A stretch of DNA of 64,000 bases from Octopus vulgaris (lineage: Eukaryota): NCBI GenBank assembly GCA_951406725.2, contig OX597817.1, positions 166,718,001-166,782,000 on the forward strand, in the 5' to 3' direction. A program made the translations under genes and the position numbers. This document shows positions 955 to 62,799 of the stretch, one piece after another (the first letter of the stretch is position 1; the number at the start of each line of letters is the position of its first letter). The notes below the pieces were generated by a model, which saw nothing but the letters and a program-made list of their open reading frames with translations, made no database searches and was not told where the DNA came from.

Positions 955-1291
955 TTAATATTTCTATTATTTTAATATTTCTATTATTGAAAACAAGTGG
1001 ATGTATTCCACTGAAACTAGGTAAATATAAGCCTTCGAACAGAGACGTCAGTGGCGACACCTGCGGGTCTGACTGCGCTACATTGACAAGGGGCAATACC
1101 CCGAAACGCGTCTGTAGCTGTCGGACTGGCAGTGTGAAGCGGCTGACCTCCCTTGTTCGAAGGTTATAATGGATACAGATCGTGTATCAATAGCTATCTT
1201 GATGGCGGTGGCCTCATGGAGCTGACCATGGCAGCGATTATTCTTATATCTATAAGAATGCCATATTAATATGGCGATAACAATTAATTTA
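954..1291 (+). mobile_element. Diverged solo copy of the 362-bp hammerhead-bearing unit (retrozyme / Penelope pLTR-like)
   Basis: Colinear with 58312-58626 (ttaatatttctattattgaaaacaagtggatgtattccac ... gaatgccatat...atggcgataac) and ends in (TA)n. Confidence 0.85.
1077..1118 (+). ncRNA. Type I hammerhead ribozyme, U3-A8 core variant
   Basis: GCTACA-TTGACAA-GGGG caata CCCC-GAAA-CGCG-TC-TGTAGC: perfect 6-bp helix I, 4-bp helix II, palindromic minimal helix III, GUC cleavage triplet. Confidence 0.8.
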
Positions 1292-16920: not shown

Positions 16921-17272
16921 GGTTTTGGTGGTAGCAATGGTGCCAGTGCTTCGCTGCTGCTGCTAGTGTTGGCCGTGCTGGTGGTGATTGGAGTACCGAG
17001 ATGATGTTGCAGTACAAACAATGTCAAATGCTCAAACAACAACAACAACAACCACAACACAATTACCCAACTTAAACAGAAATTCACACGATACTGTCAT
17101 ATAACAATGTTTAGTTAGGGACAACAACAATCAAAAATACGAAAAAAAACCATTCTGACCTCATCATAGACACGTGTGTTTATTTGCATGCCGGTTTCCC
17201 TCCACATTTTGGATTGCCATGTCTAGATGTGCGTAAATTGTTGTTTTTTGTTGCTTTTTATGCATCCTATCG

Positions 17273-18142
17273 ACTAGACATGGTCAAAGGCGTTCCAGCC
17301 TCGACTACCCCACCTTAAATATATATTTTTTCTATATTTCTTTTAGCTTTTTGTAAAATAAATTTTCATCAGTTGAGTGTTTCAGATTTTCTATCAGTAA
17401 AACGGTATATTGTTGAACTAGTACTAAAGTGGCCGAGTATTCCAGAGATACTTGTATCTTTAGTCCAACTTTATGGGAGAATCAATGTGACTAAATATAA
17501 TAATAATAAATGCGCCCTTATAAAGCCTAACCAGGCTCATGGGCCCGGTTTCTTTATCTACTAGACGAGGTCAAAGGCGTTCCAACCTGGACTAACCCAC
17601 CTTAAATATATATTTTTTCTAAATTTCTTTCAGCTTTTTGTAAAATAAATTTTCATCAGTTTTGATGATGAGTGTTTCAGATTTTCTATCAGTAAAACGG
17701 TATATTGTTGAACTAGTACTAAAGTGGCCGAGTATTCCAGAGATACTTGTATCTTTAGTTCAACATTATGGAAGAATCAATGTGACTAAATATAATAATA
17801 ATAAATGCGCCCTTTTAAAGCCTAACCAGGCTCATGGGCCCGGTTTCCTTATCTACTAGACAAGGTCAAAGGCGTTCCAGCCTCGACTATCCCACCTTAA
17901 ATATATATTTTTTCTATATTTCTTTCAGCTTTTTGTAAAATAGATTTTCATCGGTTTTGGTGATGAGTGTTTCAGATTTTCTATCAATAAAACGGTATAT
18001 TGTTGAACTAGTATTTAAGTGGCTGAGTATTCCAGAGATACTTGTATCTTTAGTGCAACTTTATGGGAGAATCAATGTGACTAAATATAATAATAATAAA
18101 TGCGCCCTTTTCAAAGCTTAACCAGGCTCATGGGCCCGGTTT
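17273..18142. repeat. Tandem triplication of a ~290-bp unit
   Basis: actagaca/gaggtcaaaggcgttcc begins units at 17273, 17560 and 17855. Each unit ends in the SINE tail ccaggctcatgggcccggtttc. Confidence 0.93.
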
Positions 18143-18348
18143 CCCGATTTCTATGGCGTATGTGTTCCCCAGCTGGACGGGACGCCAGTCCATCGCAGCG
18201 TTGCTCATTTTTGCCAGCTGAGTGGACTGGAGCAACGTTAAATGAAGTGTTTTGCTCAAGAACACAACGCGTCGCCCGGTCCAGGAATCGAAACCACAAT
18301 CTTACGATCATGATGCTAATACCCTAACCACTAAGCCACGCGCTTCCA
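18090..18348 (-). mobile_element. tRNA-derived SINE, family S3 (Meta-domain-like), full length
   Basis: Minus strand: gtGGCTTAGTGGtt, GTTTCGATTCC, central ctgcgatggactggcgtcccgtccag, (TTA)n tail. Confidence 0.85.
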
Positions 18349-19745: not shown

Positions 19746-20145
19746 GGCGGCGAGCTGGCAGAAACGTTAGCACGCCGGGCGAAATGCTTAGCGGTATTTC
19801 GTCTGCGTTACGTTGTGAGTTCAAATTCCGCCGAGGTCGACTTTGCCTTCCATCATTTCGGGGTCGATAAATTAAGTACCAGTTACGCACTGGGGTCGAT
19901 GTAATCGACTTAATACCTATGTCTGTCCTTGTTTGTCCCCTCTGTGTTTAGCCCCTTGTGGGTAATAAAGAAATAGGTATTTCGTCTCCCGCTATGTTCT
20001 GAGTTCAAATTCTGCCGAGGTCGACTTTGCCTTTCATCCTTTCGGGGTCAATTAAATAAGTACCAGTTACTCACTGGGGTCGATATAATCGACTTAATCC
20101 GTTTGTCTGCCCTTGTTTGTCCCCTTGTGGGTAGTAAAGAAATAG
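19746..20145 (+). mobile_element. S2 SINE (Nin-like domain) with tandemly duplicated body
   Basis: ggcggcgagctggcagaaacgttagc head. gccgaggtcgactttgcctttcatcctttcggggtcg core occurs twice. Confidence 0.9.
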
Positions 20146-36025: not shown

Positions 36026-36068
36026 AATAATAATAATAATAATAATAGTAATAATAATAATAATAATG

Positions 36069-36100
<32 letters not shown>

Positions 36101-39100
36101 CAAAAGAAAAAGAAGGAAAAATGGTCTAGGGAAGATAATAAAGAAGTTCTTGAGGCCTTCTACCATGCCATATATTTCCCCACAGATAAGTCTAGCACTG
36201 TACAAGCATACTTAAACTGGAGACAGAAACACCCTGAAGTAAGACCCTACATAGACAGTAACAAGCTTGCCAATGTTAGAAGAAACATTATAAAAAAGAA
36301 ATTACTGACTGAAGTAGAGATTGATCAGGTTAGACAAGCAATATCGGATAAAATGAACGAAGCTGCAGCTAGAGAAGATAATACAGAGGAAATGATTATA
36401 GACCAGCCCAGGGCGGATAAAAACGAAGAGAGGATTGAAAGAGTTAGTATAAGTGATAGGCAAAGTGAAATACGCCCTGAACCAATCATAAACACTAAGA
36501 CAGATGAGCATCAAATAGATAAAGAAAGTCACACAAATATTGACCCAACAGAACTACATGAGCTAAAAAATCAAATCATGATTGAATGGCTGAAAATTAA
36601 AGAAACCAGCATGGATGAGCGTGATACACTTCCTAAAATCCGCAACTCTAACCAAAACATGAAAATAATTGGTAAAATCCGGCTTGCACTTAAGGATATA
36701 ATTTCAGTTAATGATGTTGATATCACAAACCTCAACCACCTATACTATGCATCCGCGAAAATCTCAACGATCCTATGTGGTGTAAAGATTAGAAAACGGC
36801 AACAGTCCCACAAAAAGCCTTCTTGGCAAGAGCGTCTGCAACAACAAATTAAAATATTTAGATCTGACATTGAATATTTGAAAAACCTTAAGGCTCACAA
36901 GATTACCAAACCTACAAAAACCCAAAAATTACTGAAAAAATACAATATGAAAACTATACTTGATATTGATGCCACCATAGAAACCATCAAACAAAAGGTA
37001 TCTGCCAAAGCTGCCCGCATAGCGAGGTATGAAAAGCGTGTTAGATTTTTCAAGGACAACAACATGTTCAAAAATAACACCAAGAATTTTTACCGGAAGA
37101 TAGGAAAAACAGCGTTTACTGCAGGGTCTGTACCATCAAAAGAAGAAGTGCAGAGATTTTGGAATAAAATCTGGGCAGAAGAAAAAACACACAACGAAAA
37201 GGCCCCCTGGATTGACAGAATATCTACAGAACTGGACCCCTTAGAAGAGCAAAAGTGGGAGGGTGTCAAGGTAGAAGATATAAGATCTGCTCTCAGGAGG
37301 TCAAGCAAATGGAAGTCTCCAGGAAAGGATAAAATTCCTAACTTCTGGCTGAATGCCTTCCCAGAGAGCCATGAACTGCTAACAGAACTGTACAATGATG
37401 TTTTGCAACACCCTAGTAGGATGCCTCCTTGGCTAGTTAATGGGTTAACATTCCTGCTTCCAAAAAGTGAAGAAACAAATGAACCAAAAAACTATAGACC
37501 CATAACTTGCTTAACAACTATGTACAAAACACTAACATCTGTCCTGACGGAATATACCTATAGTTTTTTAACAGACAGCAGCATATTCCCTAATGAACAG
37601 AAAGGATGTAAACGTGGATCCTACGGCTGTAAAGACCAACTACTCATCAATAAGATGATCTTAGAAGATTGTCACAAACGACACAAAAACTTATCAATAG
37701 CCTGGATAGACTATAAAAAGGCTTTTGATAGCCTACCACATAGCTGGATTAGAAAATGCCTTGAAATGTATAAGATAGCACCAACTCTGCGAAACTTCTT
37801 GACTGTAAGTATGAGATCATGGAGAACCACACTAACTCTGAACAGTGACAGTGAATTCCTAAATGCTGGTGATGTAAAAATTTCGTGTGGCATTTTCCAG
37901 GGTGACTCACTGTCACCACTCCTCTTTTGTTTATCCTTAATACCTCTCTCAAAGCTGCTCAATGACGCGCAGTACGGGTATAAAATGTTTGATAAAAATA
38001 TAAATCATCTCGTTTACATGGATGATTTAAAGCTTTTTGCAAAAAATGATCAACAACTCAAGGGCTTACTAGCGATAGTCAAACAATTCAGTGACGACAT
38101 CAGAATGCAATTCGGCCTCGATAAATGTGCAAAGGCTACCTTTATCAAAGGAAAAATGACAGAAACATCTAACGTTAACCTTGACCAACAGAATGTCATA
38201 AAAGAACTAGACCCAGCGGAGAGCTACAAGTACCTAGGGATAATTGAAGGGAACGGAATAAGGCATTCAGAGATGAAGGAAAGGATCAGGAGAGAATGCT
38301 ATCGAAGAGTGAGAGCAATACTCAAAACAGAGCTGAATGCAAGAAACAGGATCGAAGCAATCAATGCATTAGCTATACCAGTCGTGACTTACAGTTTCAA
38401 TATTGTTAACTGGTCAATTACTGAAATATGTCAGCTCGACAGAAAAATAAGGAAACTGTTGACAATGCATAGAATGCACCACCCTAAGGCAGATACAGAA
38501 CGACTCTATCTGCCAAGAAAAGAGGGAGGCCGTGGTCTTTTGCAACTGGCAATAACAATGAAGATTGCTACAATTGGCCTAGACACCTACCTGAAAAACT
38601 CTGAGGACTGGATGCTAAAACTTGTCTCAAAACATGAAAACAAGAAAGCATCATACTCAGTCACAAAACAGGCAAAGGAATATCTAAGTGAATTCCGAAT
38701 ACAACCAATTTCGGAGATAGATATACAAGAAACAAGCACAGAAAAAGCTAGGCGCATGAAAACCCGTGCCAAAACTGCGGCCTTAGATATTCTGAATAAT
38801 AAATGGCAAGAAAAACCTCTCTATGGCAAATACCCAAAGAGAGCGAATAATGCAGATATCGACAAAGCCCTGACCCATCAATGGCTAATGGCCTCTGGCT
38901 TAAAATCTGAAACAGAGGGGTTTATCATAGCAGCTCAAGATCAATGCCTACCAACAAGAAACTACCAGGCCAACATATTAAAGATCAGAAGCAGTCCAAC
39001 GTGTCGTGTATGCAAGCAACAAAATGAAACCATTGACCATGTGGTCTCCAAGTGCAGTCTTCTAGCGCCTACAGAGTATCTCAACAGGCACGATAGAGCT

Positions 39101-39796
39101 GCACAATATATTCACTGGGTAATCTGTAAAAACCTGGATTTGCCCCATGAAAAAAACTGGTGGGAACACAAACCACCCCCAGTGCTTGAAAATGACCACA
39201 TCTCACTCCTCTGGAACTTCACCATTCAAACTGACAGGAAGATAGATGCAAATAGGCCAGACATCATATTGAAAAACTTCAAACAAAGAACATGCCTCCT
39301 CATTGATATGACTGTCCCAATCGATATAAACGTATCTGTCAAGACCTACCAAAAACTGAGCAAATATAAAGATCTTGAAATAGAAATCAGCAAAATGTGG
39401 AAGCTGAAGACTAAAACAATACCTGTTGTCATAGGTGCCCTGGGAATGATAGCAAAAGGGGCTGATAGCTACCTAACTCAGATACCAGGAAACCCAAAAA
39501 TGGCAGAAGTTCAAAAGATAGTGCTCATGGGAACTGCTCATATCCTACGCAAAATACTCTCTATGTAATCTCAAGGTTTAAAACAAACATAATTTTCGGT
39601 TTAAAAAAAAAAACCAAAAAAAAAAACCTTTTTTTTTTTTATTTTTAGACATTCATTAGTACAACATCCCCACCCCCCAAATATATGGCACACTAGGCAT
39701 AACAACAACATGAACTTCCAACCCTGTTGTCTCTTGAGGTCTCTGGGTGAGACTTGGAGCCAACTTGTACAAATATAAAGCAAAAGTCAAACATAG
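36101..39796 (+). mobile_element. Near-full-length R4/Dong-clade site-specific non-LTR retrotransposon (family A)
   Basis: Single long ORF plus ~230-bp 3'UTR, flanked by (TAA)n on both sides. Confidence 0.96.
36353..39568 (+). CDS. Reverse transcriptase with CCHC zinc knuckle and restriction-like endonuclease (R4 clade); frame is open from 36101 without an ATG
   Basis: WKSPGKD, YRPITCL, WIDYKKAFDS, GIFQGDSLSPLLF, YMDDLKL, YKYLG, GGRGL, CRVC-x7-H-x4-C, RHD, RPDII...LIDMTVP, KLSKY. No APE domain. Confidence 0.96.
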   Translation: MNEAAAREDNTEEMIIDQPRADKNEERIERVSISDRQSEIRPEPIINTKTDEHQIDKESHTNIDPTELHELKNQIMIEWLKIKETSMDERDTLPKIRNSNQNMKIIGKIRLALKDIISVNDVDITNLNHLYYASAKISTILCGVKIRKRQQSHKKPSWQERLQQQIKIFRSDIEYLKNLKAHKITKPTKTQKLLKKYNMKTILDIDATIETIKQKVSAKAARIARYEKRVRFFKDNNMFKNNTKNFYRKIGKTAFTAGSVPSKEEVQRFWNKIWAEEKTHNEKAPWIDRISTELDPLEEQKWEGVKVEDIRSALRRSSKWKSPGKDKIPNFWLNAFPESHELLTELYNDVLQHPSRMPPWLVNGLTFLLPKSEETNEPKNYRPITCLTTMYKTLTSVLTEYTYSFLTDSSIFPNEQKGCKRGSYGCKDQLLINKMILEDCHKRHKNLSIAWIDYKKAFDSLPHSWIRKCLEMYKIAPTLRNFLTVSMRSWRTTLTLNSDSEFLNAGDVKISCGIFQGDSLSPLLFCLSLIPLSKLLNDAQYGYKMFDKNINHLVYMDDLKLFAKNDQQLKGLLAIVKQFSDDIRMQFGLDKCAKATFIKGKMTETSNVNLDQQNVIKELDPAESYKYLGIIEGNGIRHSEMKERIRRECYRRVRAILKTELNARNRIEAINALAIPVVTYSFNIVNWSITEICQLDRKIRKLLTMHRMHHPKADTERLYLPRKEGGRGLLQLAITMKIATIGLDTYLKNSEDWMLKLVSKHENKKASYSVTKQAKEYLSEFRIQPISEIDIQETSTEKARRMKTRAKTAALDILNNKWQEKPLYGKYPKRANNADIDKALTHQWLMASGLKSETEGFIIAAQDQCLPTRNYQANILKIRSSPTCRVCKQQNETIDHVVSKCSLLAPTEYLNRHDRAAQYIHWVICKNLDLPHEKNWWEHKPPPVLENDHISLLWNFTIQTDRKIDANRPDIILKNFKQRTCLLIDMTVPIDINVSVKTYQKLSKYKDLEIEISKMWKLKTKTIPVVIGALGMIAKGADSYLTQIPGNPKMAEVQKIVLMGTAHILRKILSM

Positions 39797-40610: not shown

Positions 40611-40947
40611 CTGGCTTACCATCCATACAGGAAGTGCAAAAGGTTGTTTTAACTGGTACGTCACACGTATTGAGAAGAGCATTGTCGCTGTGAATTTTCT
40701 TTACTTTTACCCCATTATTTATTTGTTTACTTCTCTATTTTTTTTCCTTTTTCTCCCTGTCTTCCCTCTTTTTCTCTGTCACATGACTCTGTAAATGAAC
40801 AATCTGGTGTGTTTGTTTTAATGGCCTACCAATGTATACAGTACGTTTCTCTGCCTAGATGTCAGCAAGACACTCGGCAAGAAATGGAATCAGAATTGAA
40901 AGAAGATGCTAATGAAAATAATAATAACAATAATAATAATAATAATG

Positions 40948-40981
<34 letters not shown>

Positions 40982-41130
40982 TAATAATGATGATAATAAT
41001 GATAATAATAATGATGATAATAATAATAATAATAATGATAATAATAATAATAATGATAATAATAATTATAATAATAATCATAATAATAATGATAGTAATA
41101 ATAATGATAATAATAATGATAATAATAATG

Positions 41131-41209
<79 letters not shown>

Positions 41210-41253
41210 TAATAATAAAAATAATAATAATCATCATAATAGTAATAATAATG

Positions 41254-41303
<50 letters not shown>

Positions 41304-41309
<6 letters not shown>

Positions 41310-42336
41310 CTGTTCTCAGTATTTAAGGAAGCTGACAAATACAAACAAGAAATCAAAGCACCTAATAAACATGAAGAAGAAGAAGAAGATGAAGAAACAA
41401 CAAAAGCTATAAAACAAATGAAATCCAAACTAAAAACAGAACAGCAACGAACCATGATAAAACGATGGCAAGAAAAGCCCCTTCATGGTAAATACTGCAC
41501 TAAACTAAACGCAAAAGAAATAGACAAAGAAAAATCCCAGCAATGGTTGAGAAGCTCAGGACTCAAAGCAGAAACAGAGGGATTTTTAATTGCAGCACAA
41601 GACCAAAGCCTCCCCACCAGAAATTACCAAAAACATGTAATGAAAAGAAATATTACAAGTAACTGCAGAATATGTGGAGATGGACAAGAAACAATAAATC
41701 ATATTATCTCTAGCTGCCCAGTCCTGGCTAAGAAGGAATATATTCACAGACATGACAGAGTTGGAACCTACATACATTGGAAGCTATGCCAACATTATGG
41801 AATAACAACAGAAAAAAGATGGTATAGGCACACACCAGAAAAGGTCACAGAAAACGAGAAAGCAACCATACTCTGGGATATGCCGATACACACAGATAGA
41901 GAAATTAAGGCCAACAGACCAGATATAGTTGTCAGAGATCATGAAGAAAAAAAATGCTTTTTAATTGATGTATCAATACCGGCAGATGACAACGTGTCTC
42001 TAAAAGAAATGGAGAAACTCTCAAAATACAAAGACCTGGAAATAGAGGTAACTAGAATGTGGAATCTGAAAACAGAAACAATTCCTATCATAGTAGGTGC
42101 ATTAGGCATGATAAAAAAATATTCAGACAAATACATAACAAAAACACCAGGACTTACAAACACATATAACATACAGAAAATTGCACTACTAGGCACTGCC
42201 CACATCCTACGCAGAACACTTTCCATACAATAACCATCAGAGCATCACAACAAATCACAGCACATACCCAAGGCACACAGAGCTGCGCTCGGTAGTGAAG
42301 TGAAAGCACGCTATAAAAATAAAAATAAAACTACTG
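41304..42336 (+). mobile_element. R4/Dong-like family B, 5'-truncated copy with open frame
   Basis: WQEKPLHG, GLKAETEG, CCHC, RPD/IDVSIP, KLSKY, then 3'UTR and (AAT)n. Preceded by a ~390-bp AAT array. Confidence 0.95.
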
Positions 42337-42363
42337 AATAATAATAATAATAATAATCATCAT

Positions 42364-42456
42364 CATCAGAGCATCACAACAAATTACAGCACATACCCAA
42401 GGCACACAGAGCTGCGCTCGGTAGTGAAGTGAAAGCACGCTATAAAAATAAAACTA

Positions 42457-42459
<3 letters not shown>
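42364..42459 (+). mobile_element. Family B 3'UTR-only insertion
   Basis: catcagagcatcacaac...aaactactg-(AAT)n duplicates the 3'UTR of the preceding copy. Confidence 0.9.
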
Positions 42460-42519
<60 letters not shown>

Positions 42520-57259: not shown

Positions 57260-57318
<59 letters not shown>

Positions 57319-57544
57319 GAAATATTAAAATTACTAAGTCTCTCTAAAAGAGAACAGCGGCAGCGTTCCCGGAAAATAATAGTTATCGCCATACTAATAT
57401 GGCATTCTTATAAAAATAAGAATAAAGCTGTCCGCTTATTAGCTCCATGAGGCCATCGCCTTAAGTTAGCTATTTGATACACAAACTGTATCCATATAAC
57501 CTTCGAACAAGGGAGGTCAGTCGCTCCACACTACTTGACCGGCA

Positions 57545-57586
57545 GCTACAGACGCGTTTCGGGGTATTGCCCCTTTTCAATGCAGC
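57545..57586 (-). ncRNA. Type I hammerhead ribozyme, U3-A8 variant
   Basis: Minus strand GCTGCA-TTGAAAA-GGGG caata CCCC-GAAA-CGCG-TC-TGTAGC. Confidence 0.8.
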
Positions 57587-57906
57587 GTAGCCAGCCAGTA
57601 GGTGTCGCTTCCGACAATCTCTGTTCGATGGTTTTATTTACCTAGTTTCGGTGGAATACATCCATTGGTTTTCAATAATAGAAATATTAAAATTACTAAG
57701 TCTCTCTAAAAGAGAACAGCGGCAGCGTTCCCGGAAAATAATAGTTATCGCCATACTAATATGGCATTCTTATAAAAATAAGAATAAAGCTGTCCGCTTA
57801 TTAGCTCCATGAGGCCATCGCCTTAAGTTAGCTATTTGATACACAAACTGTATCAATATAACCTTCGAACAAGGGAGGTCAGTCGCTCCACACTACTTGA
57901 CCGGCA

Positions 57907-57948
57907 GCTACAGACGCGTTTCGGGGTATTGCCCCTTTTCAATGCAGC
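57907..57948 (-). ncRNA. Type I hammerhead ribozyme, U3-A8 variant
   Basis: Identical motif in the second tandem unit. Confidence 0.8.
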
Positions 57949-58268
57949 GTAGCCAGCCAGTAGGTGTCGCTTCCGACAATCTCTGTTCGATGGTTTTATT
58001 TACCTAGTTTTGGTGGAATACATCCACTTGTTTTCAATAATAGAAATATTAAAATTACTAAGTCTCTCTAAAAGAGAACAGCGGCAGCGTTCCCGGAAAA
58101 TAATAGTTATCGCCATACTAATATGGCATTCTTATAAAAATAAGAATAAAGCTGTCCGCTTATTAGCTCCATGAGGCCATCGCCTTAAGTTAGCTATTTG
58201 ATACACAAACTGTATCAATATAACCTTCGAACAAGGGAGGTCAGTCGCTCCACACTACTTGACCGGCA

Positions 58269-58310
58269 GCTACAGACGCGTTTCGGGGTATTGCCCCTTT
58301 TCAATGCAGC
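58269..58310 (-). ncRNA. Type I hammerhead ribozyme, U3-A8 variant
   Basis: Identical motif in the third unit, a few nt from the inversion junction. Confidence 0.8.
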
Positions 58311-58423
58311 GTAGTAATTTTAATATTTCTATTATTGAAAACAAGTGGATGTATTCCACCGAAACTAGGTAAATAAAACCATCGAACAGAGATTGTCGGA
58401 AGCGACACCTACTGGCTGGCTAC

Positions 58424-58465
58424 GCTGCATTGAAAAGGGGCAATACCCCGAAACGCGTCTGTAGC
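58424..58465 (+). ncRNA. Type I hammerhead ribozyme, U3-A8 variant
   Basis: Same motif in the inverted unit. Confidence 0.8.
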
Positions 58466-58713
58466 TGCCGGTCAAGTAGTGTGGAGCGACTGACCTCCCT
58501 TGTTCGAAGGTTATATGGATACAGTTTGTGTATCAAATAGCTAACTTAAGGCGATGGCCTCATGGAGCTAATAAGCGGACAGCTTTATTCTTATTTTTAT
58601 AAGAATGCCATATGGCGATAACTATTATATATATATATATATATATCTTAATAGTAATGGTAAGACAACAAAAGAATGAAAGAGAACTCGATATTAACGT
58701 AAATAGAGGAATT

Positions 58714-58922
58714 TATCTGTAATATAATATGTGGCAATTATTTGGTTGCCATAATAAAACTCCGAGTTTCGGATGCCGGGGCGGAAACCTGCACCGGCAC
58801 CTCTTCAGTTAGCGAGGCAATTTTGATTGCCTTTATAACTGAAGAGATACAGGTTTCCCTCCCGACATTCGAAACTCGGAGTTTTATTATACCAACCGAA
58901 TAATTGTCACATATTATATTAC

Positions 58923-58927
<5 letters not shown>
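58714..58927. mobile_element. ~215-bp imperfect palindrome with a hammerhead-like core on each arm
   Basis: Arms tatctgtaatataatatgtggcaattat...aaaactccgagtttcg and cgaaactcggagtttt...ataattgtcacatattatattacagata, centre aggcaat-tttg-attgcct. CTGAAGA...GAAACTCGGAGTT on both strands. Confidence 0.7.
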
Positions 58928-58985
<58 letters not shown>

Positions 58986-61609: not shown

Positions 61610-61613
<4 letters not shown>

Positions 61614-62799
61614 CTCTGAGGACTGGATGTTAAAACTTGTCTCAAAACATGAAAACAAGAAAGCATCATACTCAGTCACAAAACAGGCAAAGGAATATCT
61701 AAGTGAATTCCGAATACAACCAATTTCGGAATTAGAGATAGATATACAAGAAACAAGCACAGAAAAAGCTAGGCGCATGAAAACCCGTGCCAAAACTGCG
61801 GCCTTAGATATTCTGAATAATAAATGGCAAGAAAAACCTCTCTATGGCAAATACCCAAAGAGAGCGAATAATGCAGATATCGACAAAGCCCTGACCCATC
61901 AATGGCTAATGGCCTCTGGCTTAAAATCTGAAACAGAGGGGTTTATCATAGCAGCTCAAGATCAATGCCTACCAACAAGAAACTACCAGGCCAACATATT
62001 AAAGATCAGAAGCAGTCCAACGTGTCGTGTATGCAAGCAACAAAATGAAACCATTGACCATGTGGTCTCCAAGTGCAGTCTTCTAGCGCCTACAGAGTAT
62101 CTCAACAGGCACGATAGAGCTGCACAATATATTCACTGGGTAATCTGTAAAAACCTGGATTTGCCCCATGAAAAAAACTGGTGGGAACACAAACCACCCC
62201 CAGTGCTTGAAAATGACCACATCTCACTCCTCTGGAACTTCACCATTCAAACTGACAGGAAGATAGATGCAAATAGGCCAGACATCATATTGAAAGACTT
62301 CAAACAAAGAACATGCCTCCTCATTGATATGACTGTCCCAATCGATATAAACGTATCTGTCAAGACCTACCAAAAACTGAGCAAATATAAAGATCTTGAA
62401 ATAGAAATCAGCAAAATGTGGAAGCTGAAGACTAAAACAATACCTGTTGTCATAGGTGCCCTGGGAATGATAGCAAAAGGGGCTGATAGCTACCTAACTC
62501 AGATACCAGGAAACCCAAAAATGGCAGAAGTTCAAAAGATAGTGCTCATGGGAACTGCTCATATCCTACGCAAAATACTCTCTATGTAATCTCAAGGTTT
62601 AAAACAAACATAATTTTCGGTTTAAAAAAAAAAAAAAACACTTTTTTTTTAGACATTCATTAGTACAACATCCCCATCCCCCAAATATATGGCACACTAG
62701 GCATAACAACAACATGAACTTCCAACCCTGTTGTCTCTTGAGGTCTCTGGGTGAGACTTGGAGCCAACTTGTACAAATATAAAGCAAAAGTCAAACATA

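Follow-up and report, generated by a model that had tools for sequence, protein, structure and literature searches.

The window analysed here, a stretch of 64,000 nucleotides of Octopus vulgaris DNA (contig OX597817.1), contains at positions 57313-58628 a single retrozyme insertion of the kind that lacks long terminal repeats (non-LTR) inside a (TA)n microsatellite. Judging from the sequence and its genomic relatives, we consider it very probable that this is a young insertion of a Penelope-dependent, non-autonomous retrozyme, which carries a type I hammerhead ribozyme with a U3-A8 pair and was copied into (TA)n. The source genome comprises 2.8 Gb in 227 contigs and is rich in microsatellites. 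Tandem Repeats Finder (TRF) reported a period of 362 bp at 57313-58314 (2.8 copies, 99% matches), and the 362-bp units of this array present four differing positions between them. The longest ATG-initiated open reading frame (ORF) of the element has 43 aa and runs into the microsatellite, four ORFs reach at least 30 aa, and the 2-kb bins containing the element have GC contents of 37% and 33% (<50%). The near-identical non-coding units described in the original prediction were thus upheld.

The same prediction had treated the whole of 57313..58626 as a tandem repetition. BLAST within the window revealed that 58312-58628 is an inverted piece and not a continuation of the tandem: 2.8 head-to-tail units occupy the minus strand of the insertion and meet an inverted arm of 317 bp in a head-to-head junction. 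With unit position 1 placed at window position 57674 (minus strand), the order is (TA)n, unit 362 back via two whole units to 85, the junction, 339-362 followed by 1-299 on the plus strand, and (TA)n again. The arms overlap by 3 nt at the junction, and the inverted arm (58312-58628) carries a 6-bp deletion near its 3' end. The description as a tandem element with a hammerhead stands, and it had overlooked the inverted arm, the targeting of (TA)n, the paired A/B ends and the site of a resident long interspersed nuclear element (LINE). The parts of the insertion are as follows.

57263..57315, no strand: left (TA)n target tract (TRF)
57313..58314, minus strand: tandem arm (locus L001), unit 85-362, 1-362, 1-362, whose end, at site B (unit 362), lies in (TA)n
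57313..57375, minus strand: 63-nt 'tail' between site A (unit 299) and site B (unit 362), at one insertion end only
58312..58628, plus strand: inverted arm, unit 339-362 and 1-299, whose end, at site A (unit 299), lies in (TA)n
58627..58646, no strand: right (TA)n target tract, which doubles as the end of an unrelated neighbouring Penelope-type short element

Predicted hammerhead ribozyme of the unit

The motif spelled out in the original prediction, including U3-A8, was found in all four segments that span its position; two complete copies and one clipped copy follow each other in the tandem arm. The window also holds an older copy of the unit.

57538..57594, minus strand: type I hammerhead, copy 1 (U3 at 57580, A8 at 57575, predicted cleavage 57551/57550)
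57900..57956, minus strand: type I hammerhead, copy 2 (U3 at 57942, predicted cleavage 57913/57912)
58262..58314, minus strand: hammerhead, copy 3 (U3 at 58304; proximal part of helix I complete; the junction clips the distal stem on its 5' strand)
58416..58472, plus strand: hammerhead of the inverted arm (U3 at 58430)
969..1290, plus strand: older-subfamily copy of the retrozyme unit, 85% identical, ending at site A in (TA)n

The motif combines the box UUGAAAA, GAAA and GUC with a helix I of 6 bp, which bears a UAC bulge and a distal stem. Helix II has 4 bp with a CAAUA loop, helix III has 2 bp with a palindromic loop, and the extra base between positions 9 and 10.1 is absent. We take the UAC bulge and the CAAUA loop to resemble the tertiary-contact motif of Schistosoma. 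The minimal hammerhead of the Penelope type is described with a helix II of 7-8 bp, a helix I of 4-5 bp and an extra base between 9 and 10.1 (PMC4209133). By the definitions of that paper, the predicted ribozyme has the canonical metazoan type I layout, with its 6-bp helix I, distal stem and 4-bp helix II, and it is not the minimal hammerhead announced initially. Nor is the U3-A8 pair new: it is a natural swap of the 3-8 pair that is active in vitro (PMC3088659) and is present in the Penelope hammerheads of Schistosoma (PMC4209133).

The 91-nt hammerhead region folds with z = -4.5. For the predicted circular 362-nt monomer (z = -7.5), the fold is a rod with branches that closes at the cleavage site, and in it helices I and II form at p 0.94-1.0. 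A register-shifted, inactive helix I was ruled out (p = 0 in the predicted circle). The antisense 362-nt circle yielded z = -6.4, and the fold z therefore reflects self-complementarity and not strand. In the consensus structure of the circle, based on ten monomers, 6 of 101 pairs present two-sided changes. An Rfam search, which had been listed as a check in the original prediction, returned no match for 57313-58630 at E <= 10, and a wider Rfam scan returned only sub-threshold matches of the microRNA type, driven by microsatellites. The hammerhead call therefore rests on the motif and its covariation and not on a curated model. As had been anticipated, the box UUGAAAA escapes a CUGANGA pattern; descriptors of this form would miss the retrozyme family, as Rfam did.

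Covariation was evaluated on 29 copies from three subfamilies, in which 93.1% of 521 cells are paired relative to 29-45% in controls with slid partners. Changes on both sides were found in 4 of the 18 hammerhead pairs. The covariation score was reached by none of 500 shuffles, the number of covarying pairs by 83 of 500. Because the core pattern served to pick most of these 29 copies, the conservation of the core among them is a circular observation. Three relatives were located without this pattern: the window copy 969-1290 (85% identical), L079 (81%), which came from beside a Penelope match, and L247 (72%), which came from the flank of a LINE. All three retain U3, A8 and the remaining core letters, and position 7 alone varies (C in the window copy). 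Helix II is spelled GGGG/CCCC, AGGG/CCCU or GAGG/CCUC, and the palindrome of helix III is kept in three spellings. As far as sequence comparison can tell, the hammerhead core is fixed and its helices covary across four subfamilies that are 72-100% identical. The older window copy also presents a 17-bp tandem duplication (954-988) at its 5' end.

Genomic copies, paired ends and template

The exact core pattern was matched 1133 times genome-wide and its reversed control was not matched; the core pattern of the older subfamily was matched 685 times (control: 5). On contig C1, 84 core matches correspond to 57 insertions, from which we extrapolate roughly 770 insertions for the first pattern. Copies lie mostly within TA microsatellites, as short arrays dispersed over many contigs, and the longest run reaches up to 10 consecutive units with a closed 362-bp period (L114). 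We analysed 87 non-redundant insertions (13 overlapping fetches were dropped), composed of the 25 best BLAST matches, 55 insertions of C1 in genome order and 7 picked as long arrays. In contigs from four runs guessed to be RNA, the repeat parts are covered whereas the unique flanks are not; carry-over of DNA from a multicopy repeat would produce this pattern as well, and we count it neither for nor against expression. A C3-G8 ancestor was sought among 202 matches to the canonical core (control: 4), with no resemblance to the unit in any of 20 loci fetched. Those loci (L171-L190) carry old, dispersed, hammerhead-like motifs with the canonical core, a palindromic helix III and a decayed helix II, and are unrelated to the unit.

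Two arms pointing outward are present in 62 of the 87 insertions. The 3' ends of the arms are fixed while their 5' ends are ragged: arms end either at site A (unit 290-304) or at site B (unit 350-362). These sites lie 63 nt apart, and both present the same final seven letters before (AT)n. One A end and one B end were found in 54 of the 55 two-armed insertions for which both ends could be classified (p about 2e-15 under independent ends), and in 30 of 31 within the C1 set, which was not chosen by BLAST score. One end lies elsewhere in 7 of the 62, in at least one case owing to interruption by a LINE. The paired A/B ends are, on this evidence, a near-absolute form of the Penelope 'tail', 63 nt long. 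At the junction between arms, an overlap of at least 2 nt was observed in 29 of 52 insertions relative to 58 of 200 simulated ones. Classical twin priming was rejected: the 5' end of one arm falls within 15 nt of the 3' end of the other in 2 of 52 insertions when 8.5 are expected.

We then compared haplotypes at family-polymorphic sites in 249 young segments of 298. Discordance was 31/3356 (0.9%) within insertions and 58325/238968 (24%) between them, and it remained at 20/1130 (1.8%) between the two arms of one insertion. Haplotypes are thus uniform per insertion, which indicates one template lineage for each.

A search of the genome for GIY-YIG domains, of which 150 of 6136 candidates were scored, yielded a young Penelope family (L121-L132) with a 781-aa frame that joins a reverse transcriptase (RT) and GIY-YIG through a CX4CX2C linker. 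The family appears Neptune-like by the description in PMC8557442. The hammerhead in its pseudo-LTR (pLTR) shares the U3-A8 box and helix III with the oldest well-sampled retrozyme subfamily, and the last seven letters of end B are common to the unit and this family. This family, too, has two end sites in (TA)n, and they are paired in both of the two inverted copies seen. A second frame of up to 479 aa (stop to stop) lies upstream of the RT frame in another phase, and the 3' untranslated region contains repeated CCAAT- and CRE-like boxes, as judged by eye. Another Penelope family (L133, L134, L139) presents a hammerhead-like motif of the C3-G8 type and a one-ended tail of about 30 nt. At L149, a 238-bp inverted duplication (797-1034 and 1718-1955) links an old retrozyme arm to an antisense fragment of a Penelope ORF.

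These observations are compatible with the following scenario. A retrozyme array would be transcribed by read-through, and the hammerhead would cleave after GUC to release a 362-nt monomer, probably with the help of the dimer form of the palindromic helix III. The monomer would be ligated into a circle, as in other animal retrozymes (PMC7229834). The RT-endonuclease of a resident Penelope-like element would likely cut through both strands of (TA)n, and the two DNA ends would prime at RNA sites A and B, 63 nt apart, one end each. Priming would probably be carried out by one dimeric Penelope enzyme on one RNA lineage; a dimer of the Penelope enzyme is predicted in PMC11167929. Copying over more than a unit would be followed by joining of the two complementary DNA ends, often via microhomology. 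The tandem and inverted structure, the tail and the (TA)n bias of Penelope insertions are described in PMC8557442, a tail bounded by two RT start sites in PMC11167929, and a link between retrozymes and Penelope-like elements in bioRxiv 10.64898/2026.07.22.740005.

Several results, in addition to the absence of an Rfam match, weigh against this scenario. Sharing of haplotypes between arms is also expected if one source element is active at a time. Among 119 informative private substitutions, 3 are present in all units of an insertion, 108 in one unit and 8 in some, and in the window insertion one variant is common to two of the four segments. The predicted ligation junction is not an error hot spot (exact in 151 of 157). 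Private variants and ligation-junction errors, tried as a signature of circles, gave no signal in either case. The 5' ends of arms cluster at several places, and the cleavage site (10 of 152 cases) does not stand out from the others (28 of 152 at unit 160-180). The tail of the young Penelope family is about 34 nt long relative to 63 nt in the retrozyme, and BLAST detected no DNA similarity between the two outside the hammerhead core; this family is therefore a candidate partner only. In the literature, one of nine predicted Xenopus retrozymes was cleaved in vitro (bioRxiv 10.64898/2026.07.22.740005), and insertion did not require hammerhead cleavage (PMC11167929).

The sequence evidence cannot separate a circular from a linear multimeric template. 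It is possible, if rather doubtful, that the same element, equally dependent on Penelope, uses a linear and largely uncleaved read-through multimer as its template; the hammerhead would then trim slowly or with the help of a protein, and no circle would take part. Arms indeed pass unbroken through up to 10 hammerheads (L114), the LINE-containing arms at C14:43.0M and C11:33.6M are in keeping with a long chimeric template, the substrate used most in vitro was unprocessed RNA (PMC11167929), and the ligation junction has left no signature. Against a linear template, the core and helices appear to be under selection across 72-100% identity, the predicted fold forms a closed rod whose ends lie at the cleavage site, and heterogeneous arrays were not seen to pass between loci, as indicated by the low discordance within insertions. 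Moreover, circles have been shown for retrozymes of the same build in coral, mussel and axolotl (PMC7229834).

A LINE resident in the unit

The flank shared by loci L100 and L116, considered as a transduction or duplication, proved to be a LINE of 5.35 kb. Its ORF1 encodes a zinc knuckle (Pfam zf-CCHC) and its ORF2 Exo_endo_phos (apurinic/apyrimidinic endonuclease, APE), RVT_1 and zf-RVT; its named protein matches are distant proteins of the L1 superfamily (25-27%), and we label it as a putative L1/Tx1-type LINE. The LINE is inserted in sense orientation at unit 63-79 with a 17-bp target site duplication (TSD), immediately on the 5' side of the hammerhead, and a complete predicted ribozyme remains 62 nt beyond the 3' end of the LINE. 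All sites in the window are unoccupied.

57596..57612, minus strand: empty LINE target (unit 63-79; 17-bp TSD where occupied)
57958..57974, minus strand: empty LINE target
58398..58414, plus strand: empty LINE target

The 3' terminus of the LINE has 31 exact matches, of which 21 lie at the retrozyme site (16 loci), 8 elsewhere and 2 are due to chance. Thus, 21 of 29 true 3' ends occupy this site, above the criterion of >20% of flanks used for target specificity in PMC4494074. Full-length copies at 12 loci have their 5' junction at unit 79, one truncated copy has it at 78, and three loci are atypical. Near-full copies retain an ORF2 frame of at least 1134 aa in 7 of 13 cases. Over the last 1290 nt, and leaving out two short rows (C13, C14), retrozyme-linked copies are 98.9-100% identical to the reference, relative to 92-98.1% for the four usable other copies. 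Among the 11 LINE ends read outside the retrozyme, one adjoins a whole U1 small nuclear RNA (snRNA) gene (Rfam 125 bits; L241 1779-1942), one full-length copy is preceded by the initial 17 bases of U1 (L258 2432-2448), and most of the remaining insertions start with ATAC-like letters.

These patterns read as repeated, site-specific insertion into the retrozyme after a shift away from a U1-type target; the older copies in U1 snRNA suggest a target switch. The alternative, which we regard as improbable, is that the LINE landed once at unit 63-79 and then hitch-hiked as cargo of the retrozyme, without site specificity. It would account for the retrozyme site being unlike the ATAC-like starts of older insertions, and for the fact that, among the 8 loci that carry the youngest LINE, 7 have one retrozyme haplotype in common (this haplotype represents 25 of 77 young loci sampled). 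Two loci also look Penelope-made: at C14:43.0M the head-to-head junction lies within LINE sequence with a 7-nt overlap, and at C11:33.6M LINE sequence is present at the same site in both retrozyme arms. Against a single landing, the LINE occupies the same base in seven retrozyme haplotype backgrounds, and the polymorphic first letter of the TSD matches on both sides in all 13 loci read (7 G/G, 6 A/A). A 5'-truncated LINE of the youngest type with a 16-bp TSD resides in an older retrozyme haplotype (C3:81.5M). Finally, five LINE copies are found in a row inside one retrozyme insertion at C2:73.0M (73044000-73069100), where three of the four spacers between them are the TSD alone, and tandem LINE copies with TSD spacers are the pattern of sequential insertion (PMC4494074). 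Site-specific insertion was likely accompanied by some secondary hitch-hiking with the retrozyme.

More tentatively, and with less confidence than the reverse, these elements may form a chain of three tiers: a Penelope enzyme would copy the U3-A8 retrozyme RNA from two fixed priming sites, each serving one end of a cut (TA)n, and the LINE that formerly targeted the 5' end of U1 snRNA genes would ride the read-through transcript, be excised by the flanking hammerheads and, via the 62 retrozyme bases kept at its 3' end, home to the equivalent site of other copies.

Other readings, neighbouring features and known systems

It is very unlikely that the unit merely serves an autonomous Penelope element as its pLTR, with the arrays as 5'-truncated copies of that element. 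The partial tandem, inverted copy, tail and (TA)n correspond to the architecture of Penelope insertions (PMC8557442), but none of 115 loci (the 87 insertions and 28 of the older subfamily) presents the unit in pLTR position to an ORF within flanks of 1.3-2 kb, which bears out the initial view of a non-autonomous, dispersed element. Penelope protein matches lie near four of the 115, three of them across a microsatellite and one antisense. The unit also repeats with a closed 362-bp period over up to 10 units, and BLAST against 40 Penelope loci detected nothing in common except one neighbouring old retrozyme copy. We find it scarcely credible that recombination spread a DNA satellite or foldback repeat in which a hammerhead-like motif arose by chance: the antisense strand folds well too (z = -6.4) and Rfam has no match, but the short arrays are dispersed on many contigs with fixed 3' and ragged 5' ends, the core is invariant and the helices present compensatory changes.

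Other repeats surround the insertion. An unrelated Penelope-type short element (58646-58928) adjoins it and consists of two head-to-head arms with a hammerhead-like motif of the C3-G8 type; one arm has a tail of about 70 nt, the other has none, and the element ends in (TA)n. A first look at the genome gave 2699 candidates for it, with no attached ORF in 20 loci. LINE frames of 1180, 519 and 325 aa lie at 36026-39568, 40674-42233 and 61612-62589 beside (AAT)n tracts; by eye, we take them to encode an RT and a C-terminal restriction-like endonuclease. Further tandem repeats are located at 17268-18144, 19793-20129 and 42235-42486 (periods of 295, 184 and 129 bp), and a window-wide scan detected no hammerhead in these three repeats.

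How Penelope-like elements generate tandem and inverted insertions was named as unresolved in PMC8557442. A non-coding substrate of 362 nt whose ends pair A with B in 54 of 55 cases would offer a small and exact test of a model with two primers and a dimeric enzyme, and a young candidate for this enzyme resides in the same genome as the substrate. A LINE that occupies a single base of a retroelement with a ribozyme, and whose older relatives lie in U1, would allow a switch of target to be dated; RNA homology and ribozyme ends borrowed from the retrozyme may have guided this switch, instead of a changed endonuclease. In the main texts of openly accessible papers, and among 15 of 79 listings on retrozymes together with LINEs, we found no report of this retrozyme family or of a LINE that targets a retrozyme; Repbase and Dfam were outside this scope, and the supplements of PMC7229834, PMC4209133 and PMC4494074 may list related families or targets.

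The octopus unit resembles the metazoan non-LTR retrozymes described in the main texts of PMC7229834 and bioRxiv 10.64898/2026.07.22.740005, which are non-coding tandem units of 150-450 bp (350-390 in mussel) with one canonical type I hammerhead per unit, a low GC content and a self-paired predicted circle, and which co-occur with Penelope-like elements. It differs from them by its U3-A8 core outside the usual CUGANGA box, by insertions into (TA)n whose two inverted arms have paired A/B ends and by its resident LINE, and its RNA side is a prediction here. The words 'inverted' and 'microsatellite' do not occur in the main text of PMC7229834. With Penelope insertions, as described in PMC8557442 and PMC11167929, it shares partial tandems, an inverted 5'-truncated copy, a tail at one end, a bias for (TA)n and two RT start sites; in contrast, the retrozyme has no ORF and its tail has 63 nt rather than 30-40. 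The retrozyme follows a near-absolute rule of one site per end (54 of 55), whereas the start site in vitro was the same for both target strands (PMC11167929).

The same compensatory 3-8 swap is found in other U3-A8 hammerheads (PMC3088659), including Cercyon of Schistosoma (PMC4209133). In Cercyon it belongs to a minimal pLTR motif, whereas in the retrozyme it is part of a hammerhead of canonical size in a tandem element. The resident LINE is comparable to the LINEs of the Tx1 clade treated in PMC4494074 (Tx1 in Tx1D, Keno in U2, Tx1-Mar in Mariner-N4), which combine APE and RT, occupy a fixed site in a multicopy element, and present TSDs of similar length and tandem copies separated by the TSD. 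Its target differs in being a hammerhead retrozyme, and older copies of its family lie in U1 snRNA. The kind of retrozyme, its Penelope link and the U3-A8 pair are already in print; the paired-end rule and the resident LINE are added here.
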